Shown: positions 1-36,057 of the stretch, piece by piece
Layout: each line of letters starts with the position of its first letter
Numbering within the stretch: the stretch's first letter is position 1
Assembly (NCBI GenBank): GCA_963833365.1
Contig: CAWHXS010000012.1
Location: 56,402 to 120,401 of the forward strand
Reading direction: 5' to 3'
Source of the DNA: an uncultured Gemmatimonadales bacterium
GTDB taxonomy: Bacteria > Gemmatimonadota > Gemmatimonadetes > Gemmatimonadales > GWC2-71-9
Length of the DNA stretch: 64,000 nucleotides
Position numbers and translations under genes: made by a program
Notes under the pieces: generated by a model
What the model was told of the DNA's origin: nothing
The model's database searches: none
The model's input: only the letters and a program-made list of their open reading frames with translations

Positions 1-169
1 CGCGGAGCGCCTTGGCGGCGCGGAGCAGCACGAGATCCTGGAAGGAGAACCGGTAAGTGTTACGCGGACCCCGGGCCGGATGCAAAAAGCCCGCCCGAGC
101 GTACGCCCGAACCTGCGGGGGCGTGAGTGCGATCAGGCGGGCGACGTCGGCGGTGCTGTAGGATTTCAT
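1..169 (-). CDS. MerR-family HTH regulator, 5' part only (gene runs off the left edge)
   Basis: Absent from the ORF track because there is no in-window stop. Reverse-strand translation from ATG 167-169 reads MKSYSTADVARLIALTPPQVRAYARAGFLHPARGPRNTYRFSFQDLVLLRAAKALR, which fits the MerR N-terminal HTH-wing pattern. Confidence 0.6.
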   Translation of the reverse strand, partial: MKSYSTADVARLIALTPPQVRAYARAGFLHPARGPRNTYRFSFQDLVLLRAAKALR

Positions 170-185
170 GGGGGAGCCGAGCGCG

Positions 186-306
186 GTCGATGGTCAATGG
201 TCAATGGTCCTTCGTCGCTCAGCGCGTCGACCTCCCTGGTCTCTAGTGACGATCGCTTCGATTTCTCTGCATTCGACTATCGACTATTGACTATCGACCA
301 TCGACT
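186..306. repeat. Inverted pair of heptamer tandem arrays
   Basis: Arm 1 at 186-210 is GTCGATG GTCAATG GTCAATG GTCC. Arm 2 at 274-306 is CGACTAT CGACTAT TGACTAT CGACCAT CGACT. The arm 2 units are reverse complements (rotated) of arm 1, with a ~63-nt spacer. Lies between the Ku stop and the MerR start. Confidence 0.75.
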
Positions 307-318
307 GGCACTCGCCGA

Positions 319-1177
319 CTATCCCCTGGCAGCCTTCTTCACTCGCTTCTCCTTGCCACCCTTCACGACCTTCATCGCCGGCGCCTTTCCGGCAGGGGCC
401 TTGCCCGACTTGGAGAGGCTCGCCTTCAGCGCCTCCATCAGGTCGATGATCTTGGTTTCCTGCGCCTGTGGCTCGTCGGCCACGATCTCCTGGCCGTCCA
501 CCTTGGCCTGAATCGCCTCAAGGACCCGGTCTTTCACCGTGTCGTGATACTGGGCCGGCTTGAACTCGTCGGTGGCGGACTGGTCGATCAGTTGCTTCGC
601 CAGCTGCAGCTCCGCGTCCTTGACCTGCGTGTCGGGGATCGGCACTTCGCTCACCGGGCGGAGCTCATCGGCATAGTGCAGCTGCTCCAGCACCAGCGCT
701 CCCTCCAGGGGACGCACCAGGATCAGGTTCTGCTTGCCGCGTGCGGAATACTGACCCACGCGCCGCTCGCCCGCTCACCTTCAGGGCCTCGAGCAGCAAG
801 CGGTAGGCGCGTTCACCGCCCTTGTCGGGCCCGAGGTAGTAGGCCTTCTCGAGGTAGATCCGGTCCACCTTCGCCAGCGGCACGAACTCCTTGATGTCGA
901 TGGTGTTGGTGGCCTTCTCGTCGAGGGCCTTCAGTTCTTCGGGGGAGAACAACACGTACTGTCCCTTGGAGAACTCGTAGCCCTTGGCGATCTCGTCCTT
1001 CTCGACCACCACGTTGTCCTTGGGGCAGATATACTGCTGTTTGAGCCGAGTCCCGCAGCTCTTGTGCAGCATGTTGAACGAGACGCTGGCCGCGGACTCG
1101 CTCGAGGAGTACATGACGACGGGCACGGAGACGAGCCCGAAGGAGATTGTTGCGGAACCCATGGTGCGTGCAGCCAT
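319..1177 (-). pseudogene. ku: Ku (NHEJ DNA end-binding protein), one frameshift near 750-780
   Basis: The N-terminal ORF (665..1186) has the Ku core MAARTMGSATISFGLVSVPVVMY...YYLGPDKGGERAYRLLLEAL. The sequence continues in another frame (319..759) as GQYSARGKQNLILVRPLEGALVLEQLHYADELR, ending in a Lys-rich tail. The likely start is ATG 1175-1177 rather than the track start TTG 1186. Confidence 0.85.
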
Positions 1178-1204
1178 ATTTCCCAAACGGACGGAGGAAA
1201 GCGT

Positions 1205-1233
1205 ACTATAGGATTGCGAATATGAAGTTGCAA
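1205..1233 (-). promoter_or_regulatory. Candidate sigma70-type promoter for ku
   Basis: On the minus strand: TTGCAA (1228-1233), a 17-nt spacer, then TATAGT (1205-1210). It sits about 28 nt upstream of the ku ATG. Recognised by eye only. Confidence 0.4.
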
Positions 1234-1238
1234 GTCAC

Positions 1239-1322
1239 GGGAGACGGGAGACGGGAGACGGGAGACGGGAGACGGGAGACAGGAGACGGGAGACGGGAGA
1301 CGGGAGACAGGAGATGGGAGAA
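1239..1322. repeat. (GGGAGAC)n heptamer tandem array, 12 units
   Basis: 84 nt of GGGAGAC with three variant units (two GGGAGACA-type and one GGAGATG). It starts 5 nt beyond the putative ku -35 box, in the ku/ligD divergent region. Confidence 0.9.
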
Positions 1323-1365
1323 CTAGACCAGTGATACGCGAAAGACATTGATCCGTTTCAATTGG

Positions 1366-1465
1366 CCGCCTCGTCCGCCTCGTCCGCCTCGTCCGCCTCG
1401 TCCGCCTCGTCCGTCCTGTTCGCCCCGACCGCCTTCCCGCCTTCCCGCCCTACCGCCCTCTTTAC
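1366..1465. repeat. (CCGCCTCGT)5 nonamer array decaying into CCGCCTTC-type 8-mers
   Basis: Five perfect 9-nt units at 1366-1411, followed by CCGTCCTGT, TCGCCCCGA, CCGCCTTC x2 and CCGCCCTA. The track ORF start at 1348 translates this as PPRPPRPPRP, which I regard as non-coding. Confidence 0.85.
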
Positions 1466-1497
1466 CTTTCCCCCGATTACCTGTCTTTTTTCTCACC

Positions 1498-4113
1498 ATG
1501 CCTGAGCATCCCCTCTCATCCTATCGGGCCAAGCGACGTCTCGAGGCCACCCCGGAGCCGGGAGGAACCGTTGCACCGGGTGGCGGGCATCTGTTCGTCG
1601 TGCACAAGCACGCGGCCCGTCGGCTTCACTTCGATCTCCGGCTCGAAATGGATGGAGTCCTCCGCTCCTGGGCCGTCCCCAAGGGCCCGTCCTACGATCC
1701 GAACGACAAGCGCCTGGCGGTGCACGTCGAGGATCACCCGGTGGAGTACGGGGACTTCGAAGGGATGATTCCGGAGGGCAACTACGGCGCTGGCGCGGTG
1801 ATCGTGTGGGACCGGGGTAGCTGGACTCCCGTCGGTGACCCCAACGAGGGCCTGGCGAAGGGGAAGCTCCTCTTCCGTCTCGATGGCCACAAGCTGCACG
1901 GAATGTGGACGCTCGTGAAGCTGAAGAAGGGTGAAAAAGAGTGGCTGTTGATCAAGGAACGCGATTCCTACGTAACCCCCGGTGGTCGCGAGGTGCCCGA
2001 AGGCTCGGTGCTTTCCGGCGTCACCGTCGAAGACATGAAGGCGAGGACCGATCTGGCAGCACCGGTGCTCAAGGCTCTCGAACGGGTGAAGGCGCTCAAG
2101 CGGGACGTCACGGCCGACAAAGTTGACTTGATGCTGGCGGAAGTTGCCGAGAAGCCGTTCTCCCGCGACGGCTGGCTGTTCGAGCTCAAGCTCGATGGAT
2201 ACCGGCTCCTGGCCGAACGGCGGAAGGGACACGTCGTTCTCCTCACCCGCAATCACAACGATGCCACCGTCACCTTCCCCGAGATCGCGAAGTCCGTGGC
2301 GGCGATGCCGTTCGATTCGCTGATCTTTGACGGCGAGGTGGTGGCGCTGGATCCGACCGGACGGCCGAGTTTCCAGGGCTTGCAACAACGGGGCAGGCTC
2401 CGGCGCCCGCTCGAGGTACAGCGTGCGGCGATCGAGCAACCGGTAGTCTACTTCGTCTTCGATCTCCTCGCCTTTGGCCCCTACGACCTGCGCCCGCTGC
2501 CGCTGGAGGCAAGAAAGGAAATCCTGAAACAGGTGGTGCCCGAGGTCGGCGCCATCCGTTACGTCGACCATATCGAGCGAGAAGGGGAGCAGGCTTTCGC
2601 CGAGGCCGAACGCATGGGCCTCGAGGGCCTTGTCGCAAAGAAGGCCGATGCCCCCTACAAAGGCGGCCGCTCGGCAAACTGGCTCAAGCTTCGCGCGGCC
2701 AAGAGCGACGATTTCGTCGTGGTCGGCTTCACCGCTCCCAAGGGATCGCGCGCCGGGCTGGGAGCCCTGCATCTCGCGCAGTATCTGGACGGAGAGCTGA
2801 CCTATTCCGGTCGCGCGGGCAGCGGGCTCACCGACAAGGATCTGACCGGAATTCGGGAGCACCTGGAGCAGAAGAAGCGGAAGACGCCGCCCTGCGAGAA
2901 GGTGCCCGCCGAAGCGAAGAAGGACTCAACCTGGGTTGAACCGGAATTGGTTTGCGAGGTGCGCTTCACCGAGTGGACCGGCGAAGGCTTGCTGCGTCAC
3001 CCGGTATTTCTCCGCTGGCGCGACGATAAGAAACCGGAGGATTGCATCGGCTCGGCGGCTCGGCGGCTCGGCGGCTCGGCGGGTGAGCCCGAGCCAGGCA
3101 ATACCACCGACAAGCCCTCAGCCAAGCGAGCCAAGCGAGCAACGAACCGCCGAACCGCCCAGTCGCCGAAGCCTGCCGCCGAGCCGCCGAGCCGTGGTGC
3201 CGCCGAGCCGCCGAGCCGCCGCTCTGTCCCCCTGCAGCTCACCAACCTGAAGAAAGTCTTCTGGCCGGTCGAGGGTTACACCAAAGGCGATCTAATCGAG
3301 TACTACCGCGGGATCTCGCCCTGGCTGCTCCCGTATCTGCGCGACAGGCCGGTGGTGCTGACCCGCTTTCCTGACGGGATCGAAGGGAAGTCGTTCTATC
3401 AGAAGGATGCGCCGGACTTCATCCCCGACTGGATTCGCACGGTCCCGATCTGGAGCGAGGATACCGGGCGGGACATCAAGTATTTCGTGTGCGATGACCT
3501 CGATTCACTGCTCTACATCGCGAACATGGGGGCGATCCCGCTGCATCTCTGGCTCAGCAGCGCGGGCTCGCTGGAGCGTCCTGACTGGTGTGTCATGGAT
3601 CTCGACCCCAAGGAGGCGCCCTTCAGCGACGTGATCAAGGTCGCTCGGCTCCTACATGAGCGGTGTGAAACGGCAGGCTTGCCCAACTACGTGAAGACGA
3701 CAGGGAAGACCGGCCTGCACGTGATGATTCCCTTAGGCAAGCAACTCACCTGGGAGATGTCTCGAGGTCTCGGGGAACTGCTCGCGCGAGTCGTGATGCG
3801 GGAACTGGGAGACATCACCACCATCATCCGGCACATCCGGAGTCGAGGGACCAAGGTCTATCTCGACTACATGCAGAACCGTCACGGGCAGCTGATTGTG
3901 GCGCCCTACGCGGTTCGGCCTTTGCCCGGGGCAACGGTCTCGATGCCGCTGGAGTGGAAGGAGGTCAACAACAAACTCGATCCCACGAAGTTCACTATCC
4001 GGACAGCCATCGAGCGAATGCAGAAGCTGGGTCACGACCCGGTGGCACCAGTGCTGACTGAAGTTCCGGATCTGGGGGAGGCGTTGGAGAAGCTGTCGGG
4101 TGGGTCGGGCTGA
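1498..4113 (+). CDS. ligD: Multifunctional NHEJ ligase LigD (phosphoesterase - ATP-dependent ligase - polymerase/primase)
   Basis: PE domain: HLFVVHKHAARRLHFDLRLE. Ligase motif I: FELKLDGYRLLA. Pol domain: LTNLKKVFWP...KTTGKTGLHVMIPL. Start placed at ATG 1498 (MPEHPLSSYRAKR), downstream of the repeat-encoded extension. Confidence 0.9.
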   Translation: MPEHPLSSYRAKRRLEATPEPGGTVAPGGGHLFVVHKHAARRLHFDLRLEMDGVLRSWAVPKGPSYDPNDKRLAVHVEDHPVEYGDFEGMIPEGNYGAGAVIVWDRGSWTPVGDPNEGLAKGKLLFRLDGHKLHGMWTLVKLKKGEKEWLLIKERDSYVTPGGREVPEGSVLSGVTVEDMKARTDLAAPVLKALERVKALKRDVTADKVDLMLAEVAEKPFSRDGWLFELKLDGYRLLAERRKGHVVLLTRNHNDATVTFPEIAKSVAAMPFDSLIFDGEVVALDPTGRPSFQGLQQRGRLRRPLEVQRAAIEQPVVYFVFDLLAFGPYDLRPLPLEARKEILKQVVPEVGAIRYVDHIEREGEQAFAEAERMGLEGLVAKKADAPYKGGRSANWLKLRAAKSDDFVVVGFTAPKGSRAGLGALHLAQYLDGELTYSGRAGSGLTDKDLTGIREHLEQKKRKTPPCEKVPAEAKKDSTWVEPELVCEVRFTEWTGEGLLRHPVFLRWRDDKKPEDCIGSAARRLGGSAGEPEPGNTTDKPSAKRAKRATNRRTAQSPKPAAEPPSRGAAEPPSRRSVPLQLTNLKKVFWPVEGYTKGDLIEYYRGISPWLLPYLRDRPVVLTRFPDGIEGKSFYQKDAPDFIPDWIRTVPIWSEDTGRDIKYFVCDDLDSLLYIANMGAIPLHLWLSSAGSLERPDWCVMDLDPKEAPFSDVIKVARLLHERCETAGLPNYVKTTGKTGLHVMIPLGKQLTWEMSRGLGELLARVVMRELGDITTIIRHIRSRGTKVYLDYMQNRHGQLIVAPYAVRPLPGATVSMPLEWKEVNNKLDPTKFTIRTAIERMQKLGHDPVAPVLTEVPDLGEALEKLSGGSG
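3048..3223. repeat. Composite short-period repeat element inside the ligD Lig-Pol linker
   Basis: (CGGCTCGG)x4 at 3048-3079. (GCCAAGCGA)x2 at about 3121-3139. (GAACCGCC)x2 at 3144-3159. (CCGCCGAG)-type x6 at 3176-3223, which is the reverse complement of the first array. Translated in frame as GSAARRLGGSAGEPEPG...AAEPPSRGAAEPPSRR. Confidence 0.8.
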
Positions 4114-4114
4114 A

Positions 4115-4253
4115 GTCGATGGTCGATGGTCGATGGTCGATGGTCGTGTGGGTCTTGAGTCTTGGGCCATGAGACCGCAACACTGCTGGTCCGCCCCGTC
4201 CGCCCCGTCCGCCCCGTCCGCCCCGTCCGCCTCGTCCGCCCTGTCCGCCCCGT
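4115..4253. repeat. Tandem arrays between the convergent ligD and sthA genes
   Basis: (GTCGATG)x4 at 4115-4142, GTCTTGA GTCTTGG at 4152-4165, and (CCGCCCCGT)x7 at 4191-4253 with two variant units. Confidence 0.9.
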
Positions 4254-4254
4254 C

Positions 4255-5655
4255 TCACACCGCCAACTTATTCGCCGCATTCAACGCCGCCACCTTGTAA
4301 CACTCGGCGAGCGTGGGATAGTTGAACACCGTTTCCATGAAGTAGTCGAGCCCGGCTCCCAGGCCGAGCACCGTCTGGCCGATGTGCAGGAGTTCCGTTG
4401 CCCCGGTTCCGATGATGTGCACGCCGAGGAGTCGGCGGTCTTCCCGGTGGAACAGCATCTTGAAGAAGCCGCTGTCGTCTCCCAGGATCTGGCCTCTCGC
4501 GATCTCCCGGTACCGGGCGATCCCAACCTCGTAGGGAATCTTCTGCCTGGTCAACTCCTGTTCCGTTTCGCCCACCATCGAGATTTCCGGAATGGAGTAG
4601 ATCCCGATCGGGAAGTGCTGCCGCATCTTTGAGACTGGGCTGCCCAGTGCGTAGCAGGAGGCAAGACGGCCCTGCTCGCTCGACGTTGCGGCGAGGCTGG
4701 GGTGGCCGATCACGTCACCTGCGGCGTAGATGTGGGGCACTGTGGTGCGGAACTGTTCGTCCACCTGCAGCCGCCCTCGTTCATCCGCTTTGAGGCCGGC
4801 CAAATGAAGGTCGAGCTGGACGGTGGCACCAATCCGTCCGACCGAGAACAGGGCCATCTCGGAAACGATGCGCTTCCCCGATTCCAGGTGGATGACCACT
4901 CGTTTCGGCGGTTCCTCGGAGACGTCCAGCCGGTCCACCGTCTCTCCGGGCCGAAAGATCAGATTTCGCCGCCGGAGTTGATGCAGCAACTCGTCCACGA
5001 TCTCCTCATCCAGGAATTCCAGCGGACGGCGGCGCTTGTCGACCAGCGTGACCCCCACGCCAAGCGCCGCGAAGATCGAGGCGTATTCGGTGCCGATGAC
5101 TCCGGCGCCCACCACGGTCAGGGTCTTGGGGATGCGGGGCAGGCGAACGATGTCGTCACTCGTGACGATCGATACCCCATCCGCGGCCATTCCGAGGGAG
5201 GGAGCCGGAACGGTCCCCACGGCGATGAGTATGTTCTTCGCCGTTACCTCCCTCCAGCTGTCTCCCGCGCGCACAACCAGCGTGTGAGGGTCCAGGAAAG
5301 AGGCGTGACCTACGATGACTTCCACCCCGTTGCGGCGGAGCTGGTGTTCGATCACCGCCGCCTCCTGGCTCACGACGTGCGCCACCCGTTCCAGCAGATG
5401 ATCGGCGTCGGGCGGGGTGTGGATCCCTCGGCGTCCCAGCACAGCACCATGGCCTGAGAAGGACAGGACCGCCTCGCGGATCGTCTTGCTGGGGATCGTG
5501 CCGGTATCGAGACACACTCCGCCTACCGAGCGGCATTTCTCGATGATCGCCACCCGGCTGCCCAGCTTGGCGGCCTGAACGGCGGCTCGCTGGCCGGCCG
5601 GCCCGCTGCCGATGCACACGAGGTCGAACTGGTAGGTCGGTTCCATGGGGGTCAC
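4255..5655 (-). CDS. sthA: Soluble pyridine nucleotide transhydrogenase (Si-specific)
   Basis: 466 aa. FAD-binding site FDLVCIGSGPAGQRAA, NAD-binding site TVVGAGVIGTEYASIF, and overall flavoprotein disulfide-reductase layout without the redox CxxxxC. GTG start. Confidence 0.85.
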   Translation of the reverse strand: MTPMEPTYQFDLVCIGSGPAGQRAAVQAAKLGSRVAIIEKCRSVGGVCLDTGTIPSKTIREAVLSFSGHGAVLGRRGIHTPPDADHLLERVAHVVSQEAAVIEHQLRRNGVEVIVGHASFLDPHTLVVRAGDSWREVTAKNILIAVGTVPAPSLGMAADGVSIVTSDDIVRLPRIPKTLTVVGAGVIGTEYASIFAALGVGVTLVDKRRRPLEFLDEEIVDELLHQLRRRNLIFRPGETVDRLDVSEEPPKRVVIHLESGKRIVSEMALFSVGRIGATVQLDLHLAGLKADERGRLQVDEQFRTTVPHIYAAGDVIGHPSLAATSSEQGRLASCYALGSPVSKMRQHFPIGIYSIPEISMVGETEQELTRQKIPYEVGIARYREIARGQILGDDSGFFKMLFHREDRRLLGVHIIGTGATELLHIGQTVLGLGAGLDYFMETVFNYPTLAECYKVAALNAANKLAV

Positions 5656-5766
5656 TTCTGGAGGTAACAGGGCTGCACCAGCCTCCGTCGTATCTTACTG
5701 CGGGAAGCCATTCACGTATAGAATGATGTGCTGGCAGATGTCCAAGAAGCACGCGCGGAGCTAACC

Positions 5767-6693
5767 ATGAATCAGACCGACCAGGAAACCATCGCTACTA
5801 TCGCCCTGCTCTCCGCCCTGGCGGACGGAACGCAGACCCCGGAAGAGAGCGCTCAACTCGCCGAGGTGTTCAAGCGACTCGGAATCACCCAGCTCGACGA
5901 AGAAGCCCGTCGCGCGAGCACCGGGAAGATTGATCTGCAGGAGCTCGCGGGACGTCTTTCCGGGGATGACGCCCGTAAGATGGCCTACGACACGGCTCTC
6001 GCAGTCGTCCATTCCGACGGCGCGGCCAATCCTCCGGAAATGGATTTCATCAACCAGTTGAGAGGATCCCTCGGGCTGAGCCTGTCCTCGGTGCGAGAAT
6101 CCGATCAGCAGGCCACCGCCCTGGCAGGGGCGGGAACCAAGCTTCCCGATGTTCAGGTCAGTACGGGCAAACCGCCTTCCGATGCGGTGCTCGACGATCT
6201 GATCCTGAAGCAGGCGATGTTGACCGGCGCCCTGGAAATCCTCCCCGACCGCCTGGCCAACGTCGCCATCCTGCCGCTTCAGCTCCGCCTGGTCTACATG
6301 ATCGGGCAGCATTTCGGCCAGAAACTCGATGCCAATCAGGTCAAGGATCTCGCCGCTACGCTGGGCCTCGGTGCCGCGGCTCAGGTGATGGAGAGTGTGG
6401 TTCGCAAAGTGCTCGGCGGGATCGCCGGCGGCATCCTGGGAGGCATGGTCGGCGGCGTTACCGGACTCGCGGCAGGGGCGGCGGTGTCATTCAGCTCGAC
6501 CTATGCGCTGGGCCATGTCGCCAAGCAGTACTATGCCCAGGGACGGAGACTCAGTGGGGAAGACCTGCGGAGGCTCTTCGCCCGGTTCCAGGATGAGGCC
6601 AAGGCGTTGTTCCCCAAGGTGCGGGATCAGGTCCAGTCCCAAGCCCGCAGTCTCAACCTCCAGCAGGTGCTCGCCAACCTGCAGGGCAAGTGA
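5767..6693 (+). CDS. TerB-like N-terminal domain protein with a Gly-rich C-terminal membrane-associated region
   Basis: Start at ATG 5767 (MNQTDQETIATIALLSALADG...). Two TerB/DUF533-like helical segments (ALAVVHSDGAANPPEMDFINQLR), then a GGIAGGILGGMVGGVTGLAAGAAV glycine zipper. Confidence 0.45.
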   Translation: MNQTDQETIATIALLSALADGTQTPEESAQLAEVFKRLGITQLDEEARRASTGKIDLQELAGRLSGDDARKMAYDTALAVVHSDGAANPPEMDFINQLRGSLGLSLSSVRESDQQATALAGAGTKLPDVQVSTGKPPSDAVLDDLILKQAMLTGALEILPDRLANVAILPLQLRLVYMIGQHFGQKLDANQVKDLAATLGLGAAAQVMESVVRKVLGGIAGGILGGMVGGVTGLAAGAAVSFSSTYALGHVAKQYYAQGRRLSGEDLRRLFARFQDEAKALFPKVRDQVQSQARSLNLQQVLANLQGK

Positions 6694-6757
6694 GTCCGCG
6701 CGAACCAGACCACCTCATGACGAGGCCCCGCGGTGCAGCGCGTCGCGAGGGGAACCC

Positions 6758-7297
6758 ATGACCGGAACGCTCAGGAAGTCTGTAACCAGCCGGCTCGTTT
6801 TCCCAGCCATTCTGCTCGCGGCCCTGATTTCGTGTCGGGCCCCCGCCGCCAAACCTGCTTCCGACTCTGAATCTGCGGCGATCAACCCGGTTCAGGTCGT
6901 GGACCAGTACATGGCGGCCTGGAACGCACACGATGCCGGCAAGGCCGCCAGCTACATGACGGATGATGTCGTCTACTACGACGCCACTGTTGGGGTTCCA
7001 CAGGTGAGCCGCGATTCCGCCCGGAAGAATGTGATCCAGGCCTTCATGACCGCGGCCCCCGACTGCAATTGGGTACGGGACTCGACACCTCCGATCGTGG
7101 GGCCCGACGGCGTCGCCTTCCAGTGGACCTTCACCGGCACCCACACCGGGCCCTTCGCAGACGGGACCAAGCCCACCGGTAAGAAGTTCTCCTTCAAGGG
7201 TGCCACCCTGATCCGGCTGCGGGGAGATCACATCGCCTACCAGGGCGACTACTACGACGCCTACGGCTTCCTGAAACAGTTGGGACTGGCCAACTGA
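6758..7297 (+). CDS. SnoaL-like (NTF2-fold, ester-cyclase family) secreted or lipoprotein
   Basis: Start at ATG 6758. Signal peptide with LLAALISC, then VVDQYMAAWNAHDAGKAASYMTDDVVYYD...FSFKGATLIRLRGDHIAYQGDYYD, typical of SnoaL-like proteins. Confidence 0.65.
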   Translation: MTGTLRKSVTSRLVFPAILLAALISCRAPAAKPASDSESAAINPVQVVDQYMAAWNAHDAGKAASYMTDDVVYYDATVGVPQVSRDSARKNVIQAFMTAAPDCNWVRDSTPPIVGPDGVAFQWTFTGTHTGPFADGTKPTGKKFSFKGATLIRLRGDHIAYQGDYYDAYGFLKQLGLAN

Positions 7298-7299
7298 CC

Positions 7300-8604
7300 A
7301 TGGGCGACTCTACCGACCGCAAGAACTTCCTCTTCGTCTCGCTGTCCGGCTTGATCGGCGACATCGCGTGGCAGGTGCTGAAGGAGGGCCACGGGGTGCG
7401 CTATTTCATCGAAGCCGAACGGGAGCGGGACATCGCCGACGGGTTCGTCCCCAAGTCCACCAACTGGGAGGCGGATCTGCCCTGGGCCGACGTGATCGTC
7501 TTCGACGACACGCTGGGGCAGGGAGCCAAGGCCCAGGCCCTGCGCGCCAAGGGAAAGCTCGTCGTCGGTGGTTCAGCGTACACCGACCGGCTGGAAGACG
7601 ACCGCTCCTTCGGCCAGGAGCAGCTGCGGGAGGTAGGCGTCGGCATCCTCCCTTACAAGGAGTTCGACAACTTCGCCGAGGCGATCGAGTTCGTGCGGGC
7701 TAATCCGGACCGCTATGTCATCAAGCCCAGTGGCGAAGCACAGAACGTGAAGCGCCGGCTCTTCGTGGGTGAGGACGACGATGGGGAAGACGTGATGCGG
7801 GTGCTCGAGGCCTACAGGAAGTCCTTCTCCGATGAGATCAAGATCTTCCAGCTCCAGCGCCGGGTGACCGGTGTGGAAGTCGCCGTTGGTGCCTTCTTCA
7901 ATGGCCAGCGGTTCGTGTACCCGATCAACGTCAACTTCGAGCATAAGAAGCTCTTCCCCGGGAACATCGGCCCTTCAACCGGCGAGATGGGGACGGCCAT
8001 GTTCTGGAGCGGCCCCAACAGGATCTTCAACAACACGCTCGCCAAGATGGAAAGCCGGCTGGCCGAGGAAGGATACGTCGGATATATCGACCTCAACTGC
8101 ATCGTGAACGGGAACGGGATTTACCCGCTGGAATTCACCTCCCGGTTCGGCTATCCGACGATCATGATCCAGCAAGAGGCGATGCTGACGCCGATCGGGG
8201 AATTTCTCTACGACCTCGCCCGGGGCGAGACGCCGAAACTCCGGGTGAAGAGCGGCTTCCAGATCGGGGTACGGATCGTGGTTTCGCCTTTCCCGTTCGA
8301 TGACGACGCCACATTCGAGTCGGTATCCAAGAACGCCGTAATCTTGTTCAAGAAGCCCGCCACCGAGGAGGTCCATATCGAGGACGTCCGCCAGGTGAAC
8401 GAGCAATGGGTGGTGACGGGAACGTCGGGCGTTGTGCTGGTGGTAGTCGGACTGGGTCCGACCATGCGGCAGGCCCAGTCCCATGCCTACAACCGGATCA
8501 AGAACATTCTCATCCCCGACATGTACTATCGCACCGACATCGGGGATCGCTGGTTCGAAGACCACGACAAACTGCACACTTGGGGATACCTGAGAGAAGC
8601 CTAG
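7300..8604 (+). CDS. PurD-like ATP-grasp ligase of unknown substrate
   Basis: 434 aa. [19 protein letters not shown] resembles the PurD motif DHKR..D.GPNTGGMG. The C-terminus [20 protein letters not shown] is PurD-like. The N-domain lacks the canonical GSGGREHA. Confidence 0.6.
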
Positions 8605-10345: not shown

Positions 10346-10359
10346 TGCAGAAAGATACG

Positions 10360-10482
10360 GCGGGAAGGGCGGAAAGGCGGGATGGCGGTAGGGTGGACAG
10401 GGCGGTCGAGACGGTCGGGGCGGACGGTACTGGAACAAGAGGTCTAAGGTTTTGTCACGTCTCACGTCCCACGTCCCACCGA
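10360..10482. repeat. G-rich degenerate array plus a (CACGTCY) heptamer array
   Basis: GGGCGGAAAGGCGGGATGGCGGTAGGGTGG...GACGGTCGGGGCGGACGG contains the reverse complement of the 9-mer unit seen at 4191-4253. CACGTCT CACGTCC CACGTCC lies at 10457-10477. Confidence 0.6.
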
Positions 10483-11652: not shown

Positions 11653-11759
11653 TGAGTAGTCTTGAGTCTTGAGTCTAGAGTCTAGAGTCGTGGGTTTGTG
11701 GTCGAGACTCACGACTCATGACTCTAGACTATCGACTATCGACCATCGTCCATCGACCC
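11653..11759. repeat. Inverted pair of heptamer arrays (potential long hairpin)
   Basis: Left arm: GTGAGTA GTCTTGA GTCTTGA GTCTAGA GTCTAGA GTCGTGG. After a ~10-nt spacer, right arm: GAGACTC ACGACTC ATGACTC TAGACTA TCGACTA TCGACCA TCGTCCA TCGACCC. Confidence 0.85.
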
Positions 11760-11817: not shown

Positions 11818-13314
11818 ATGGCCCAGCTCCACCCGATTCTCGTCAACGGCCAGTGGGTCGCCCCTCACTCGACCAAGGCGCGAACCATTACCAACCCCTC
11901 GACGCTCGAAACGCTGGGGGCCGTCGCGGACTGTGATCTCCACGACGTGGATCACGCGGTGATGGCGGCACTCAATGCCCAACGCGCCTGGTGGAAGGTT
12001 CCTGGTGTCGAGAAGGCGAGGCTGCTGCGGGAAGTGGCCGCGAGGATCCGGGAGAAAGGACCCGAGCTGGCGCCGTTGCTTGCGCGGGAGACGGGAAAGC
12101 CGTTGATCGAGGCGGTGGATTGCATCGACTGGGTAGCGATCTGCTTCGAGTACTACGCCGAGATAGGGAGACGCAGCTACGGGAACTCTATCCCGCCGGG
12201 TGCGGCGCACCAGATCAACTTCACGATCAAGGAGCCGTTCGGAGTCGTCGCGGTCATCGTTCCCTTCAACTTCCCGCTGCTCCTCACCGCGTGGAAGGTG
12301 GCCCCGGCGCTCGCGGCCGGGAACACGGTGGTGTGCAAGCCGCCCCACCAGAACCCGCTCTCCAACCTCTTGATGGCGACGTGTTACGACGTGCTGCCCC
12401 CGGGCGTGGTGAATGTGGTGACCGGTGCCGGGCCGACCGGCGAGGAGCTGGTGCGCCACCCCAAGGTGGACCTGATCGCCTTTACCGGCTCGGTAGCCGC
12501 GGGACGCAGGGTCGCGAGCATGGCGGCGGAGCAGCTCAAGAAGCTGAACCTGGAACTGGGCAGCGTCGATCCGTTCATCGTCTGTGAGGATGCGGATCTC
12601 GATGTCGCGGTCCCCGGAGTCGCCTGGGCTCGGCTGCTCAACGCCGGACAGGTCTGCACGTCGTCCAAGCGGATCTACGTCGTGCAGTCGATCGCGGGCG
12701 AGTTTACCCGGCGGATGGAGCAATACGTGAAATCGCTGGTGGTGGGAGATCCGATGAATCCCGAGACCGATATCGGGCCGCTGATCTCGGACGAGGCACT
12801 GGCGACGGTGGAACGACAGGTCGCGGTGTCGGTACAGCAGGGCGCTCGAGTACTGTTAGGGGGCCGGCGGCGAAAGCACAATGGTCTCAAGGGCCATTTC
12901 TACGAGCCCACGATTCTGACCGACGTGGAGCACGGGACGCTGCCTACGCGAGAAGAAATCTTCGGTCCCGTCATTTCGATCACGGTTGCCCACGACTCCG
13001 ATCATGCCATCGAGATGGCCAACGACTCACAGTACGGGCTCGGTGCCTGCATCTACACCGCGAGTCTCGAGACCGCGATGAAGGCGATGGAGTTCATCAA
13101 GGCGGGAACCTTCTGGATCAACGACCCGCTCACCGACAACAACGCGGGTCCCTTCGGCGGCATGCGGTTGAGCGGGCTGGGGCGGGAGCTGGGAGAGGAA
13201 GGCCTCGACGCCTTCCGGGAACCCAAGCACGTGCATCTCGACTACGTGATGGAGCGGAAGGACTTCTGGTATCCCTACCGGGACCGGCCCATTCCGGGGA
13301 GCGGTGAACGGTGA
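11818..13314 (+). CDS. NAD(P)-dependent aldehyde dehydrogenase
   Basis: 498 aa. FNFPLLLTAWKVAPALAAGNTVVCKPP, LELGSVDP, the catalytic-Cys region NAGQVCTSSKRIYV, and EEIFGPV. Confidence 0.9.
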   Translation: MAQLHPILVNGQWVAPHSTKARTITNPSTLETLGAVADCDLHDVDHAVMAALNAQRAWWKVPGVEKARLLREVAARIREKGPELAPLLARETGKPLIEAVDCIDWVAICFEYYAEIGRRSYGNSIPPGAAHQINFTIKEPFGVVAVIVPFNFPLLLTAWKVAPALAAGNTVVCKPPHQNPLSNLLMATCYDVLPPGVVNVVTGAGPTGEELVRHPKVDLIAFTGSVAAGRRVASMAAEQLKKLNLELGSVDPFIVCEDADLDVAVPGVAWARLLNAGQVCTSSKRIYVVQSIAGEFTRRMEQYVKSLVVGDPMNPETDIGPLISDEALATVERQVAVSVQQGARVLLGGRRRKHNGLKGHFYEPTILTDVEHGTLPTREEIFGPVISITVAHDSDHAIEMANDSQYGLGACIYTASLETAMKAMEFIKAGTFWINDPLTDNNAGPFGGMRLSGLGRELGEEGLDAFREPKHVHLDYVMERKDFWYPYRDRPIPGSGER

Positions 13315-13337
13315 ACGGTTACTTCTCACTTCTCACG
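13303..13337. repeat. Heptamer arrays (GGTGAAC)x2 and (TCTCACN)x2
   Basis: GGTGAAC GGTGAAC GGTTACT TCTCACT TCTCACG, spanning the aldehyde dehydrogenase stop codon. Confidence 0.7.
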
Positions 13338-19500: not shown

Positions 19501-19759
19501 ATCGCAGCCGCCCCTCGGCGTCGCAGTGGTGGGCGGGCTCGCGTTCTCCCAGTTGATTACGCTCTACGTGACCCCGGTGTTCTACACCTACTTCGATGGC
19601 CTCGCGACCCGAGGGTCAAGACGTGGCGGACCCGAGCGGCCCGGTGGCCGTTGGGCCGATTCAATTGCCATAACCATGATGCCGGAGGCCTCCGCCTTCG
19701 CCACATCCAACACGTCGTTACTTCGTCACATCCAAACATCCAGACATCCAGACACCTGA
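16545..19759 (+). pseudogene. RND inner-membrane efflux transporter (HAE1/AcrB-type), at least 8 frame changes
   Basis: GTG start, [17 protein letters not shown]. Fragments: [42 protein letters not shown] / [23 protein letters not shown] / the long intact TM block FTLLLTIFLVILVIFLFLRNIPATIIPSLALPMSLIGTF...VVDDAIVVLENIVRH / FVHPITILTGLPFAGFGALLILL...FRPIMMTTMAALMGTLPIALG. Confidence 0.85.
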
Positions 19760-19795
19760 CATCCTGACACCTCACTCCTCACATCCTCACCATCC
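19727..19795. repeat. Degenerate 7-8-nt array (ACATCC/ACACC units)
   Basis: CACATCC AAACATCC AGACATCC AGACACC TGACATCC TGACACC TCACTCC TCACATCC TCACCATCC, at the RND 3' end. Confidence 0.7.
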
Positions 19796-28340: not shown

Positions 28341-28450
28341 GGCGCCTGAGTGCGGGGAATGATGCTGAATATAACCAGTAAGTATATGAAGGATGCGGGT
28401 TTGGGGCTAGGTTGCGGCTGGCGGGAGGGCTTGGGCTGGAAGGTAAGAAA

Positions 28451-28528
28451 GACGGTTCGACGGTTAGACGGTTAGTGGTGACGAACCGCCGAACCGCCGA
28501 ACCGTCAAACCGCCAAACCGTCGAACGC
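28451..28528. repeat. Inverted pair of octamer arrays
   Basis: GACGGTTC GACGGTTA GACGGTTA at 28451-28474, then GAACCGCC GAACCGCC GAACCGTC AAACCGCC AAACCGTC GAACGC at 28483-28528. The arms are reverse complements. Confidence 0.85.
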
Positions 28529-33518: not shown

Positions 33519-35912
33519 ATGCTGCGACTCCTTCGTCGCGGCGGCCTGCTCGTTGTCGCCCTGGGACTGGTGCTGTCGTGCGCAGCGCCGGACTCGACTG
33601 CTCCCAGCGCCGGCAACCCGCCTCCGCCCGCCAATACCCGACTCTGGTCCGACCCCGCTACCTGGCCCGGCCATCAGCTTCCTCAGGCCGGCGACTCGGT
33701 GGTGATTCCCGCCGGAGCCACGATCAAACTCGACACGGATCCGCCCGCGCTCCACAGCCTGACCATCGAGGGCATGCTGTTTTTCGCCGACCGTGACATC
33801 AACCTCACGACCGGCTGGATCCTGGTGGACGGCACGCTGCGTGTCGGCACCGAGAGCGCTCCCTACCGGAACCGCGCCGTCATTACCCTTACCGGAAGTC
33901 CCGGCAACGCGGACATTCGCGGCGTCGGCAACAAGATGATCGGGGTGACCGGCACGCTCGATCTGCACGGCGAGGGACGGGCCGGCTGGACTCAGCTCAG
34001 CGCGAGTGCGGCGGCTGGGGCCACCAGTATTGACCTCAAGAAGGCAATGGGCTGGCGAGCGGGAGACCGGATCGTTCTTGCGTCCTCCGATTTCGATCCG
34101 GGTCAGGCCGAAGAGGCGGTGATCAGCGCCGTCAACGGCAGCAACCTCACGCTCGAGCAGCCGATTCGGAACGCGCACTTCGGCCAGCTGTTAACAGTGG
34201 CGGGACAGAGCGTGGACGAGCGCGCGGAGGTAGGACTCCTCACCCGGAACATCACGATCCGGGGTGATACCGGTTCTACCCCGGGCTATGGCGGTCACAT
34301 CATCGTGCTGCAGGGAGCCACCGCACGGGTCGAGGGCGTCGAGTTGTTCCAGATGGGCCAGCGAGGCCATCTCGCCCGGTATCCGATGCACTGGCACGTG
34401 GCAGGCGACGTGTCGGGACAGTACTTCAGGAACAGCAGCGTCTGGCGCACCTTCAGCCGCTGCGTCACGGTTCACGGGACCGACAACGCCCTGGTCCAGA
34501 ACAACGTCTGTTACGACCACACCGGTCACGGCTATTTCCTCGAGGACGGTGCCGAGACCGGCAACACCTTCGAGGGGAACCTGGGGCTGGTCTCCCGGAT
34601 TCCGCAGGGAACCGACCGGCTGCTCGAATCGGACTCTCGTGCGGCCACGTTCTGGATCACCAATCCCGACAACACCTACCGGAACAACGTTGCGGCGGGG
34701 TCCAAGGGTATGGGATTCTGGTGCGCCTTCCCGCAGGCGCCGACCGGGCTCTCGGTGGGACAACCCAACCTGCCCCAGACCACTCCGCTCCGTGAATTCA
34801 GCGGGAACGTGGCCCACTCCAACAACCAGGGCGCGCTCCACGTGGATGATGGTCCGCTGCCGGATGGGACCACGACGGTCACCAACTACACTCCGCGGGC
34901 GGATCCTGCCGATCCATCTTCGGCCCCGGTGGTGGCTCACTTCACCAACTTCCGCGCCTACAAACAGGGCTACCGGGCCGTGTGGCTGCGGGGACGGAAT
35001 CTCGAACTGGATGACTCCCAGCTGGCCGACAACGGGATCGGAGCAACGTTCGCGGCCTCGGAAACCTTCGTGAAGAACACGGTCTTCATCGGGGTGTCGG
35101 GCGCCGCTTCTCGACTGCCGACCAGCGGTTTGCTCAAGGGATACGAGTTCTACGACGGGCGGGTAGGCGCGGAGAATGTCACCTTCGTCAACTACACGGC
35201 GGCATCGTCCATTCCGGCGGGTGCGCTGGGCTACAATCGCACCAACGCGTTCCCGATCGACCCGCGGAACTTTGCCCGCAATGCGACCTTCATCAACTCG
35301 AACGAGGTGTACATCGAGGACCCGGCTGCGGATAAGGATGGAGACAAGGCGGCGGTGTTCTTCGATGAGACTGGCGAGGTCTCGGGAGCCGCCAACCAGT
35401 GGATCGCGGCCAACGTGCCGATCCTGCTTTCCGGGTCCTGCAGCTACCGGGCGCAGTGGAACGCGCACATCTGTACCAACAGCTTTATCAATCTCAGCGT
35501 AAGAAGCGGAGGAAATGAGGCTGTCGCTCCGCTGGATGTCGTTCGGGATGATGCCGTGAGCCTTACCCTGTCGGGCACCGGCAACCAGCCGGAGCACGCG
35601 GCGATGTCCGTCATCCCCGGACGGGGGTACACGCTGCAGTGGAGCGGTGCCCAGCCGCCTACGCCGCGGATCTATCTCAACGATGCCGTCGTGGGGAACT
35701 CGGTGATGGTGTCTCTACCTCTCTCCAGCCCGCCACCCAAGGTGATCCGGGACTACAACACCTCGCAGCCCCTCGGCTCGGTCGCCGACCTGGCGGCGCT
35801 TTCGGCGAGCAACGGAGACAAGTACTACTACGATGCCGGCTCCGGCACCTTGCACCTCAAGATCGTGGTGCAGTCGGGCCGCGACTGGGCGACGATCTTT
35901 GTGACGCCGTAG
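33519..35912 (+). CDS. G8 domain plus right-handed beta-helix lipoprotein (CEMIP/TMEM2/PKHD1-like fold family)
   Basis: Start at MLRLLRRGGLLVVALGLVLSC (lipobox). The G8-like N-terminus is WSDPATWPGHQLPQAGDSVVIPAGATIKLDTDPPALHSLTIEGMLFF...GTLRVGTESAPY. It is followed by ARYPMHWH and repeated PbH1-like turns (CVTVHGTDNALVQNNVCYDHTGHGYFLEDGAETGNTFEGN). Confidence 0.75.
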   Translation: MLRLLRRGGLLVVALGLVLSCAAPDSTAPSAGNPPPPANTRLWSDPATWPGHQLPQAGDSVVIPAGATIKLDTDPPALHSLTIEGMLFFADRDINLTTGWILVDGTLRVGTESAPYRNRAVITLTGSPGNADIRGVGNKMIGVTGTLDLHGEGRAGWTQLSASAAAGATSIDLKKAMGWRAGDRIVLASSDFDPGQAEEAVISAVNGSNLTLEQPIRNAHFGQLLTVAGQSVDERAEVGLLTRNITIRGDTGSTPGYGGHIIVLQGATARVEGVELFQMGQRGHLARYPMHWHVAGDVSGQYFRNSSVWRTFSRCVTVHGTDNALVQNNVCYDHTGHGYFLEDGAETGNTFEGNLGLVSRIPQGTDRLLESDSRAATFWITNPDNTYRNNVAAGSKGMGFWCAFPQAPTGLSVGQPNLPQTTPLREFSGNVAHSNNQGALHVDDGPLPDGTTTVTNYTPRADPADPSSAPVVAHFTNFRAYKQGYRAVWLRGRNLELDDSQLADNGIGATFAASETFVKNTVFIGVSGAASRLPTSGLLKGYEFYDGRVGAENVTFVNYTAASSIPAGALGYNRTNAFPIDPRNFARNATFINSNEVYIEDPAADKDGDKAAVFFDETGEVSGAANQWIAANVPILLSGSCSYRAQWNAHICTNSFINLSVRSGGNEAVAPLDVVRDDAVSLTLSGTGNQPEHAAMSVIPGRGYTLQWSGAQPPTPRIYLNDAVVGNSVMVSLPLSSPPPKVIRDYNTSQPLGSVADLAALSASNGDKYYYDAGSGTLHLKIVVQSGRDWATIFVTP

Positions 35913-36057
35913 ACTCGGCGGCTCGGCGCCTCGGCGGACGCCACCCCGAAAAGCTTACCGCGGATGACGCGGAGTACGCGGAAGAACGCGGAGGGAAGTA
36001 CCTATAAACCACTTCGGCGTGAATCCGCGTGTTCCGTGTGTTCCGCGGTATGCAGTT
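35913..36057. repeat. (CTCGGCGN)x3 octamer array plus copy 1 of a palindromic nonamer-arm element
   Basis: ACTCGGCG GCTCGGCG CCTCGGCG at 35913-35936. The palindrome at 35950-36057 has left arm AAGCTTACCGCGGATGACGCGGAGTACGCGGAAGAACGCGGAGGGA and right arm CCACTTCGGCGTGAATCCGCGTGTTCCGTGTGTTCCGCGGTATGCAGTT, with a short loop. Confidence 0.8.

Follow-up and report, generated by a model that had tools for sequence, protein, structure and literature searches.

The ligase-polymerase linker of a Gemmatimonadales LigD carries tandem repeats of the type found in intergenic gaps

We analysed a window of 64,000 nucleotides (the whole stretch of DNA considered here) from an uncultured Gemmatimonadales bacterium and found that the segment joining the ligase and polymerase domains of its LigD is probably a weakly constrained, disordered tether, which has been colonised by the slippage-prone repeats of its lineage and which is hypervariable, always in frame and of immaterial exact sequence. 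Tandem arrays with units of 7-9 nt, often laid out as inverted pairs, lie in the little-constrained DNA of this lineage, and the linker DNA is of the same repeat type as the intergenic gaps, as supported by its period class, by two identical units and by an inverted-pair layout that it has in common with some of the gap arrays.

LigD, its linker and the repeat arrays of the window

LigD (871 aa) is encoded on the plus strand at 1498..4113, as identified by Pfam and NCBIfam matches. Its true start is the ATG at 1498 (MPEHPL), where the homologues also begin, and these homologue starts rule out the TTG at 1348 as the start. The phosphoesterase domain lies at aa 36-141 according to Pfam/NCBIfam (3′-phosphoesterase, PF13298, E 3e-44; TIGR02777, 219 bits against a cutoff of 144) and is followed by the ligase NTase and OB domains at aa 213-511, which end at aa 511 by Pfam and at aa 516 by NCBIfam (PF01068 and PF04679; TIGR02779, 299.7 bits against a cutoff of 227.75), and by Prim-Pol at aa 579/595-847, with the NCBIfam match starting from aa 579 (PF21686, E 2e-84; TIGR02778, 228 bits against a cutoff of 214.7). 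The HxHxxxH...DLRLE residues of the phosphoesterase, K231/D233/G234 of the KxDG adenylation motif (ELKLDG) and D701/D703 of the catalytic DxD of Prim-Pol are all invariant in a 60-sequence alignment. Ku, the NHEJ partner of LigD, is encoded divergently on the minus strand (319..1186, Pfam Ku). In the window, a 1-nt insertion at ~758-761, located by aligning the gene to the unbroken Ku genes of L075 and L077, splits it into two ORFs, one matching positions 1-144 of Pfam Ku and the other positions 137-189. The LigD of the window has an intact PE-Lig-Pol architecture, with ku adjacent.

The linker (3046..3231, plus strand; aa 517-578, 62 aa, IGSAARRLGGSAGEPEPGNTTDKPSAKRAKRATNRRTAQSPKPAAEPPSRGAAEPPSRRSVP) reads through in frame between the ligase OB domain and Prim-Pol, lies outside any Pfam or NCBIfam profile match and is predicted to be disordered. 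AlphaFold2 gives a pLDDT below 50 and no secondary structure at LigD residues 524-573, and the linker as modelled belongs to the intrinsically disordered, low-complexity inter-domain tethers. TRF and a direct reading confirmed the arrays at the linker positions where a previous sequence-only reading had placed them, all of them given here on the plus strand. Array 1, which is also arm 1 ((CGGCTCGG)x4.4, 3048..3082, 100% matches), is translated in all three frames as SAARRLGGSA. Downstream of it lie (AGCCAAGCG)x2.3 (3120..3140, 100% matches), a 9-nt in-frame unit with the peptide AKRAKRA, and (GAACCGCC)x2 (3144..3159), with the peptide NRRTA and a unit identical to that of the intergenic array at 28483. 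Arm 2 (3175..3222) consists of two 24-nt super-units, 3175-3198 (AAEPPSRG) and 3199-3222 (AAEPPSRR), and had rightly been described as the reverse complement of array 1, though two of its six 8-nt registers of CCGCCGAG at 3176-3223 are degenerate and only four are perfect. Over 3143-3221, TRF reports a single period-8 array (10.2 copies, 72% matches), which the direct reading splits into (GAACCGCC)x2 plus six CCGCCGAG-type registers. The domain matches bear out the proposal that the element is translated in frame as a linker between ligase and Pol; that the linker consists entirely of arrays was overstated, as they make up ~120 of its 186 nt (about two thirds), and the parts at 3083-3119 and 3161-3174 are non-repetitive, with no second copy in the window.

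Of the inverted repeats in the window, the one formed by the two arms (3048-3082 and 3176-3210), which are 93 nt apart, ranks second in length (35 nt, 91% complementary, including stretches of 22 nt and 20 nt that are 100% complementary). Five intergenic pairs of the window have the same inverted-pair layout, and only some of the intergenic arrays are paired in this way. When the linker is folded as RNA or ssDNA, arm 1 is predicted to pair with arm 2 (MFE -111.6 kcal/mol, z -4.6).

The units of the linker recur in the intergenic gaps. If up to 2 mismatches are allowed, the 16-mer CGGCTCGGCGGCTCGG is matched 8 times in the window, where 0.52 matches are expected and none of 100 shuffles gives as many as 8; five of the matches fall within the linker, where both strands are represented, and the others at 35911-35934 and 28489. 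Seven matches, against 0.13 expected, were found for GAACCGCCGAACCGCC, including an exact 16/16 match at 28483; the GAACCGCC array of the linker shares an 18-nt exact match with the intergenic array at this position, and CGGCTCGG x2 matches intergenic 35919 at 15/16. Of the two intergenic comparators on the plus strand, (CTCGGCGG)x3 at 35914..35937 begins 2 nt after a stop codon and has the unit and the strand of array 1, and the inverted pair (AGACGGTT)x3.2 / (CGAACCGC)x5.6 at 28450..28526 abuts a minus-strand stop codon and contains the GAACCGCC unit. The sequence-only reading, which had itself considered that the units might be absent from intergenic arrays, was correct in assigning them to the gaps at 28483 and 35914, strand included; within the window, they are shared in excess of expectation. 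Arrays also flank LigD: (ACGGGAG)x12, (CCGCCTCGT)x7.7 and (CCGCCTTC)x3.6 lie in the divergent Ku-LigD promoter gap (1237..1457), and (GTCGATG)x4.6 and (GTCCGCCCC)x7.3 fill the convergent gap that follows the stop codon of LigD (4115..4254), where the orthologous arrays of relatives have an altered unit and copy number. When periods of 5, 7, 8, 10 or 11 were allowed (in practice 7 and 8), the window was found to hold 17 non-overlapping non-triplet arrays with at least 3 copies, and all of these are outside genes or at gene ends except two in the LigD linker. The linker arrays have the features by which the intergenic arrays are classed, namely a period of 7-9 nt, at least 3 near-perfect copies and a GC-rich unit.

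Variation of the linker among relatives

Among close relatives, the flanking 300 nt are 80-98% identical, and the linker is 51-74% identical in all pairs but one. Its lengths of 147, 162, 171, 177, 180, 186, 216 and 234 nt, like those derived from proteins (180, 189 and 237 nt), are all multiples of 3. At least 10 distinct alleles of 147-237 nt were recovered, all in frame save that of L040, whose frameshift, the sole one in the linker, comes from a 1-nt insertion that lies outside the arrays and may be an assembly error; these are consensus alleles, because they come from assemblies, and minority frameshifted alleles would not show among them. The window and L002, with a four-fold-site divergence of 9.7%, differ by 48 nt in total linker length and by ~27% in the alignable unique part of the linker (a hand count from the alignment). 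The alignment of orthologs that had been suggested as a check for a variable linker does show that its length varies, both among these alleles and among more distant homologues.

For array 1, the window shares the unit (CTCGGCGG)n with L002 and L075, and L001, L037, L040, L076, L077 and L085 have (AATGGCGG)n, both types lying in the same register and the same codon phase. The copy number of array 1 is constant per allele type, with 4.4 copies for the CTCGGCGG type (window, L002) and ~3.2-3.6 copies for the intact AATGGCGG type in lineages up to ~40% diverged at four-fold sites, and the longest perfect linker tract of any allele is 35-36 nt (4.4-4.5 units). Over 5.6 kb, L077 and L078 differ by ~4 substitutions (3 sites), a 1-nt indel and, in the intergenic array that follows LigD, a single 9-nt unit; judging by this unit polymorphism, the arrays of the lineage do slip.

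All 131 compared homologues carry a disordered linker, of 24-108 aa (median 49), composed of A (18%), P (17%), G (9.5%) and R (8.6%) and also rich in E and S. PE-Lig-Pol LigD occurs in Gemmatimonadota, Pseudomonadales, Rokubacteria, Flavobacteria and Nitrososphaeraceae, and with a disordered linker it is present in 58 of 61 loci and in all Gemmatimonadales loci. Arrays in the linker are confined to a few lineages. Period-7/8 arrays are found independently in this linker in further Gemmatimonadales lineages, for instance in L022, with (CGGTCGGA)x6.8, L028, L029 and L013; the matching 3′ linker position is occupied by CCGCCGAR-type arrays in L086 and L087, and L086 has further arrays in an expanded OB-domain loop. 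Linker length is correlated with array density in the flanks (Spearman rho 0.39, p 0.002).

Explanations for the repeats

We propose that the arrays are made and turned over by replication slippage, unequal exchange or template switching, and that they would in this way have filled intergenic gaps, extended into C-terminal tails and colonised the LigD linker. An 8-nt unit cycles through the three frames, three units (24 nt) corresponding to 8 codons, and stop-free units with a GGCGG/CCGCC core would yield harmless G/A/R/P/S/E-rich peptides such as SAARRLGG and AEPPSRRA. The linker would be remodelled by slippage and within-array unit turnover (concerted evolution), probably also by recombination or template switching between the complementary arms, while selection would purge products that are not a net multiple of 3 nt, or long unstable tracts. 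The repeats would have no regulatory role.

Two other origins had been put forward from the sequence. The linker could be the old, repeat-filled spacer of once separate lig and pol genes, now coding, as the intergenic type of its repeats, the separate adjacent lig and pol genes of other phyla (L057, L058) and the stand-alone ligase or polymerase genes (L065-L074) might suggest. However, because all 131 homologues have a disordered linker, the fusion is old and the linker is not a captured spacer; moreover, the fused protein is found in every Gemmatimonadales locus, in other phyla and in archaea, and the arrays in few lineages, and therefore the fusion long predates the arrays. When relatives with separate genes were checked for a repeat-filled spacer, the split genes of L057 and L058 were found to be joined by a 4-nt ATGA overlap or a few bases, without a spacer, and the linker of P0002, the closest outgroup (72% identity), is non-repetitive. 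This origin is already close to refuted, and we give it almost no chance. The second proposal, a repeat inserted into a tolerant linker, survives in part: tolerance of repeat colonisation fits, whereas the insertion of a discrete mobile or dispersed element (a MITE/REP-like hairpin) is very unlikely. The spacing and inversion of the arms resemble those of intergenic hairpin elements, and one dispersed intergenic element does exist, with copies at 35940-36060 and 61379-61520 (79% mean column identity over the alignment). Against this, the array units alone match elsewhere, the non-repetitive linker parts are single-copy in the window, and in the loci of relatives, ~600 kb in all, the 16-mer GCCGAGCCGCCGAGCC is found solely inside LigD. 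In sister lineages the linker is homologous but has another arm 1 in the same register, and neither the whole-element copies and empty sites in relatives that mark dispersed mini-elements nor an evident target-site duplication was found for the linker.

The sequence-only reading had also suggested a slipped-strand switch of NHEJ. In such a switch, adding or losing a single 8-nt unit would put LigD out of frame downstream of its ligase domain and reversibly leave a PE-Lig-only enzyme, with the Pol arm of NHEJ off. The arithmetic is right, as the unit length is not divisible by 3 and ±1 or ±2 units lead to stops at aa 527-623, before or at the Pol start, with PE-Lig intact (±3 units keep the frame). 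Tetra-, hepta- and octanucleotide tracts of H. influenzae are SSR phase-variable contingency loci, and mid-ORF heptanucleotide SSR frameshifts are known there (PMC2651432); like these loci and those of a coding-region SSR survey (PMC3315296), the linker has a non-triplet tract in an ORF in which ±1 unit would shift the frame, and arrays of the lineage change copy number over very short divergence (L077/L078). Nevertheless, the switch is unsupported and, in our estimate, highly improbable. Among the at least 10 consensus alleles, there is no ±8-nt or other non-multiple-of-3 unit-number allele and no ON/OFF pair among close strains, the only frameshift lies outside the arrays, and each allele type has a constant number of array-1 copies. 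Perfect linker tracts reach at most 36 nt (4.5 units), whereas intergenic arrays of the loci reach 12-14 units and the described hepta-, octa- and nonanucleotide SSR loci of H. influenzae, of hypermutable tract length, have 8-19 (PMC2651432); the tract also lies mid-gene, 59% into the ORF, and not 5′-proximal, unlike phase-variable SSRs with their bias to the N-terminal part (PMC3315296). The contingency loci are surface or restriction-modification genes, unlike LigD, a DNA repair enzyme of a soil bacterium. If minority ±8-nt alleles existed in reads, LigD would be a rare phase-variable DNA repair enzyme. It is also unlikely that the repeats are kept by function, either as an (A)EPP(S/N)RR motif for partner or DNA binding or as an mRNA stem of arm 1 and arm 2 (a translational pause or an RNase III site). 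CCGCCGAR arrays with EPPxR peptides just upstream of Pol in lineages of 64-66% protein identity, the motif in the OB loop of L086, the strong predicted stem of the window, L002 and L075 (z -4.2 to -5.1), which share the inverted-pair layout, and an L076/L085 linker that is more conserved than synonymous sites (92% against 79% at four-fold sites) would favour such a function. However, the motif is missing from most homologues, P0002 included, there is no Rfam match, the linker stem of the six AATGGCGG-type relatives, in which the inverted-pair layout is absent, is no better than shuffles, and the arms show no covariation. Moreover, one DNA unit is read in three frames and its copies are DNA-identical rather than synonymously varied, which points to a DNA-level process.

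The weakly constrained, repeat-colonised tether does not account equally well for everything. A CCGCCGAG/CCGCCGAA family is present at the 3′ linker end of the lineages of 64-66% protein identity, one 16-mer being DNA-identical across them, and this is not obviously predicted by pure neutral turnover; the shared family could reflect selection on the (A)EPP(S/N)RR peptide or on the DNA or RNA. The high conservation of the L076/L085 linker also counts against it, as does the 2x2 test of flank arrays against linker arrays across loci, which was not significant (p 0.31). In addition, the way in which the array-1 types are distributed does not agree with the similarity of the flanks, and therefore linker-allele recombination or some constraint must also be at work. 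A broader reading, which we regard as quite unlikely, is that the arrays show in coding DNA a so far undescribed process that generates repeats throughout the lineage in some Gemmatimonadales. Nearly all unconstrained DNA would be filled by 7-9 nt arrays particular to each locus, many of them inverted pairs whose complementarity is maintained through intrastrand template switching, and rare heritable ±1-unit slips in LigD would give a PE-Lig-only enzyme and low-frequency heterogeneity in double-strand-break repair.

Comparison with known systems

Loops between LigD domains have been described as flexible in models from M. tuberculosis, P. aeruginosa and B. subtilis (PMC8656161), and the linker resembles them in its OB/Prim-Pol position, its low confidence or disorder, its variable length and its lack of a conserved sequence. 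It differs from other LigD loops in being near the long end (62 aa against a median of 49), in that about two thirds of it consist of non-triplet (8-nt) arrays with an inverted arm pair, and in that linkers of its type are hypervariable even where the flanks are 97-98% identical. As a natural experiment, the LigD tether indicates that almost any sequence of ~49-79 residues is tolerated if it is in frame. Among NHEJ proteins, M. smegmatis Ku has PAKKA repeats in its C-terminal tail that are reported to modulate DNA binding (PMC3553676). Both the tail and the linker are low-complexity, basic P/A-rich repeat regions that are missing or different in relatives; unlike the PAKKA tail, a peptide-level, C-terminal repeat, the linker has a DNA-level repeat of 8 nt, read in three frames and placed between catalytic domains, for which any function is putative.

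Intergenic repeats of the heptamer class abound in some lineages, such as the G-rich heptamers of cyanobacteria and Xanthomonas (PMC4692102) and the TAACTGA arrays of Beggiatoaceae (PMC4679880). As in these, 7-9 nt direct-repeat arrays have spread in a lineage-specific and mainly intergenic manner; one or few units dominate genome-wide there, whereas here nearly each locus has its own unit, and the Gemmatimonadales arrays, unlike those, are often inverted pairs and intrude into coding linkers and tails. A search of a literature library for such arrays in Gemmatimonadota found no publication. These near-universal, locus-specific gap arrays may merit a study of their own, and they are relevant to how slippage, template switching and mismatch repair operate in a phylum that has received little study. 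For annotation, short tandem arrays here can encode real protein parts (linkers, loops and C-terminal tails) and can also give rise to false N-terminal extensions and to long ORFs in alternative frames.

Quasipalindrome correction by intramolecular template switching has reportedly been described by Ripley in 1982 and, in E. coli, by the Lovett laboratory. As in that process, an imperfect inverted repeat (GGCGG/CCGCC cores, AATGGCGG versus CCGCCGAG) is perfect in some alleles of the linker; the likeness is drawn from the comparison of alleles, and the alleles of both types of arm 1 are old (L075, L001, L037). In L085, a 35-nt tract of arm 2 has exactly the reverse-complement sequence of the window's arm 1.

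Array composition of the LigD linker

LigD is encoded in the window (64% G+C) by a plus-strand ORF at 1348-4113, in which the true start is the ATG at 1498 (MPEHPL...), matching the homologues. Pfam and NCBIfam profiles place the phosphoesterase domain at aa 36-141, the ligase NTase and OB domains at aa 213-511 (to 516 in NCBIfam) and the Prim-Pol domain from aa 579 (595 in Pfam) to 847, while residues 517-578 (nts 3046-3231), the linker, have no profile match in Pfam or NCBIfam. An alignment of 60 sequences shows no variation at the catalytic residues, and on this ground the gene looks functional. The LigD assigns the window to a Gemmatimonadales bacterium. The nearest public loci, by LigD amino acid identity, come from soil metagenome-assembled genomes (L002 94%, L001 91%, L040 88% and L037 87%).

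TRF identified two perfect arrays in the linker on the plus strand, (CGGCTCGG)x4.4 at 3048-3082 (array 1) and (AGCCAAGCG)x2.3 at 3120-3140, together with a less regular array of period 8 over 3143-3221 (plus strand). Read directly, the latter contains (GAACCGCC)x2 at 3144-3159 and six 8-nt registers of CCGCCGAG (four perfect, two degenerate) at 3176-3223, both on the plus strand; the six registers form two 24-nt super-units coding AAEPPSRG and AAEPPSRR. Arm 1 (3048-3082) and arm 2 (3176-3210) are 91% complementary over 35 nts, including stretches of 22 and 20 nts that match perfectly, and this pair is the second-longest of the inverted repeats in the window. GAACCGCCGAACCGCC recurs exactly in the intergenic gap at 28483 (0.13 hits expected from shuffles) and dimers of CGGCTCGG recur in the gap at 35911-35934 (0.52 hits expected). 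TRF, direct reading and shuffles thus bear out the sequence-only reading of the arrays, of the inverted second block and of the sharing of units with intergenic gaps; its statement that the linker consists entirely of arrays was too strong, since arrays make up about 120 of the 186 nts and the rest is unique sequence.

Further features of this region were observed. The arrays (CCGCCTCGT)x7.7 and (CCGCCTTC)x3.6 at 1348-1497 stay open in the LigD frame, so that translation from a TTG would add 50 spurious codons at the N-terminus (PPRPPRPPRP...), and gene callers have given a like extension to the relatives' proteins P0002 and P0135. An ORF of 104 codons in the +1 frame (2936-3250) is open across the linker because the repeat units are stop-free, and is almost certainly not a gene. 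Ku, the NHEJ partner, lies divergently upstream of LigD (319-1186, minus strand) and is split into two ORFs by one extra base at ~758-761 (CACGCGCCGC in the window, CAC-CGCCGC in the related locus L075); apart from this base the two halves show good conservation, and the Ku of relatives is intact (285-291 aa). Either Ku is a very recent pseudogene, in which case NHEJ would be switched off here, or the extra base is an assembly indel.

Intergenic-type repeats in a pre-existing linker

For the window as a whole TRF gave ~50 rows. Of these, 17 are non-overlapping arrays of a non-triplet period (5, 7, 8, 10 or 11 admitted, 7 and 8 in practice) repeated three or more times. With gene boundaries taken from a codon-usage gene model, the period-7/8 arrays all lie outside genes or overlap stop codons or C-terminal tails, except for two in the LigD linker. 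They fill promoter (1237-1457), convergent (4115-4254) and short co-directional (44364-44437) gaps, and intergenic inverted pairs occur at 186/274, 11665/11707, 28451/28481, 35953/36014 and 61379/61473. The linker repeats have the period class and units of the gap repeats and, in the window, the paired layout of some of them, and are of the intergenic type.

Most of the intergenic gaps examined contain 7-9 nt tandem arrays, the unit differing by locus (for example 185-306, 1237-1457, 4115-4254, 10359-10479, 11658-11758, 28450-28526, 35914-36047, 44364-44437 and 61327-61504). Many have a GGCGG/CCGCC core, several are inverted pairs 4-60 nts apart, and they frequently begin 0-15 nts from a stop codon. 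The trait is seen in some Gemmatimonadales relatives only (L003, L006, L016, L017, L029, L031, L087 and others), and searching the literature library for Gemmatimonadota tandem repeats brought up no relevant paper and no description of the trait. Arrays also overrun the 3′ ends of predicted genes at 13302-13319, where the stop codon falls within a CGGTGAA unit, at 19728-19769, where the last ~10 codons of the protein come from (ACATCCAG)n, and at 44364-44397, so that C-terminal tails are invaded as well. In contrast to these single-locus arrays, a dispersed hairpin element of ~120 nts, present in two copies (35940-36060 and 61379-61520; 79% mean column identity over the alignment) with a 9-nt periodicity in its arms (GCTTACCGCGGATGAYGCGGARTACRCGGAAGAACGCGGA ... 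TCCGCGTGTTCCGYGTGWTCCG), looks like a REP/MITE-like family.

The sequence-only reading had left two origins open, a repeat element in a tolerant linker or a former spacer between separate lig and pol genes. In all 131 homologues that allowed its limits to be set, the linker measures 24-108 aa (median 49) and has a high content of A, P, G, R, E and S. An AlphaFold2 model based on the 60-sequence alignment gave pLDDT below 50 without secondary structure for residues 524-573, with the three domains confident, and a structural review of LigD describes long flexible loops separating the domains (PMC8656161). The fused phosphoesterase-ligase-polymerase arrangement was found in 58 of 61 loci, from Gemmatimonadota, Pseudomonadales, Rokubacteria, Flavobacteria and Nitrososphaeraceae. 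At two loci of other phyla, L057 (Kapaibacterium) and L058 (Eisenbacteria), lig and pol are separate genes, but their junctions are an overlap (ATGA in L058) or a few nts, and a repeat-filled spacer is absent from both. Perfect 8-nt linker arrays of at least three copies are restricted to the window's own clade, and looser, independent linker arrays are present in a few other lineages. Since the linker is universal and predicted to be disordered and the perfect arrays are clade-restricted, the arrays entered a linker that already existed. Judged from the homologues and the model, the linker is ancient and disordered and not a captured spacer, which refutes the gene-fusion origin and upholds the tolerant-linker alternative.

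Linker variability and unit turnover

Alignment of the eight clade members with usable DNA (the window, L002, L075, L076, L077, L085, L001 and L037) showed that the linker is hypervariable in sequence and variable in length (147-234 nts): the 300-nt flanks are 80-98% identical, the linkers 51-74% identical in every pair but L076/L085 (92%). The window and L002 are 9.7% diverged at four-fold sites and 1.4% in amino acid residues, and their linkers differ by 48 nts in length and at ~27% of alignable unique positions (manual count from the alignment). Proteins of the same 90% cluster supplied further alleles, with linkers of 54, 59, 60, 63, 72 and 79 aa, and P0123, known as protein only, seemingly lacks 24 nts (three units) of array 1. 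A metagenome scan with a DNA pattern that is specific to the clade and marks the beginning of the Pol domain yielded only six contigs. All linker alleles are multiples of 3 nts, bar L040 (154 nts), where a 1-nt insertion in ACTCGCC (4550-4575), which may be an assembly error, lies upstream of array 1 and outside any repeat and is thus uninformative on unit slippage. Two of the six contigs from the metagenome scan, L080 and L083, both of one ENA assembly, were left out of the frame counting, being seemingly riddled with indels (L080 plainly so). The LigD of P0125, on an 86-kb contig, carries a frameshift in its AEAKK region.

Array 1 takes two forms, matched in register and codon phase: (CTCGGCGG)n, reading SAARRLGG, in the window, L002 and L075, and (AATGGCGG)n, reading WRNGGMAE, in L001, L037, L040, L076, L077 and L085. 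The GGCGG core is common to both and the other three positions differ in every copy. Overall divergence of the window is 6-8% from L076, L077 and L085, of the other type, and 15% from L075, of its own type; that the types do not follow flank similarity implies recombination among linker alleles or recurrent conversion. The 35 nts of arm 1 in the window are the exact reverse complement of the perfect arm-2 tract in L085, which would fit intrastrand template switching, converting one arm by the other. Selection on array 1 was rejected as a reading of its conservation, since by our calculation concerted evolution leaves eight independent sites, for which zero changes are unsurprising.

L077 and L078, from different samples, encode the same LigD protein and differ over 5.6 kb by ~4 substitutions and one indel of 1 nt, and also by one 9-nt unit in (GTCCGCCCT)n downstream of LigD (~4287 of the alignment), indicating that the arrays slip on short time scales; the L079 contig terminates within this array. 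Over the 61 loci, arrays in the flanks and arrays in the linker were not significantly associated in a 2x2 test (Fisher p 0.31), unlike array density in the flanks and linker length, for which the rank correlation was significant.

Possible roles of the repeats

An on/off switch, in which gain or loss of an 8-nt unit would frameshift LigD and uncouple Pol, is correct in its arithmetic: one or two units more or fewer in either block lead to stops at aa 527-623, giving a phosphoesterase-ligase protein without Pol, and three units preserve the frame. However, ±8-nt alleles were not found among the linker alleles of the consensus assemblies, and the array-1 copy number is unvarying within each type. 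The perfect linker tracts do not exceed 4.5 units, compared to 12-14 units in intergenic arrays of the same genomes and to 8-19 units in the hepta-, octa- and nona-nucleotide SSR loci of H. influenzae (PMC2651432). The tract also lies mid-gene and not 5′-proximally, whereas coding SSRs with phase variation are enriched toward N-termini (PMC3315296). With the contingency signature missing from these comparisons, the proposed switch is unsupported, and we consider it very improbable, what likelihood is left to it being that of a rare OFF subpopulation below the reach of consensus assemblies.

A strong arm 1/arm 2 stem is predicted for the window (MFE -111.6 kcal/mol, z -4.6), L002 (z -4.2) and L075 (z -5.1), and one no better than shuffles in relatives of the AATGGCGG type. 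A conserved RNA structure was rejected, as significance of the hairpin is limited to CTCGGCGG-type alleles, with no covariation between the arms and no match in an Rfam search of window 1-8000. Direct reading of the sequence led us to drop programmed frameshifting (no slippery heptamer seen upstream of arm 1) and an internal terminator (no T-run seen after arm 2).

A function of the repeats is hinted at by CCGCCGAG/CCGCCGAA arrays that code for EPP(S/N)RR peptides directly upstream of Pol in L086 and L087 (64-66% protein identity) and are also present in an expanded OB-domain loop of L086, and by the 16-mer GCCGAGCCGCCGAGCC, which in ~600 kb of relatives' loci is confined to LigD. Neutral turnover would not obviously lead one to expect such persistence of EPP(S/N)RR arrays across lineages, which we count as evidence against the reading that we prefer (below). 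However, the motif is absent from most homologues, the repeat copies have one and the same DNA sequence where synonymous differences could have occurred, and all three frames are used to read the unit; together these points favour maintenance by a process that would perpetuate itself at the DNA level. 

Our verdict is that the segment is the ordinary disordered LigD tether, in this lineage probably colonised and continually remodelled by slippage-prone 8-nt repeats typical of the unconstrained DNA of this genome, with the reading frame and a moderate tract length as its only probable filters. SSR-built low-complexity linkers are already known, and that of LigD is a new example; its peculiarity is that groups of three keep a non-triplet unit in frame.

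In L086 (4420-4587; P0032, LigD 64% identical), the short OB loop before STWVEPE has grown to ~70 aa, coded by (AGGGCGGAC)x5.3 and two (GCCGAGCC)x2.3 arrays, and is a second LigD site colonised by the same repeat family as the linker.
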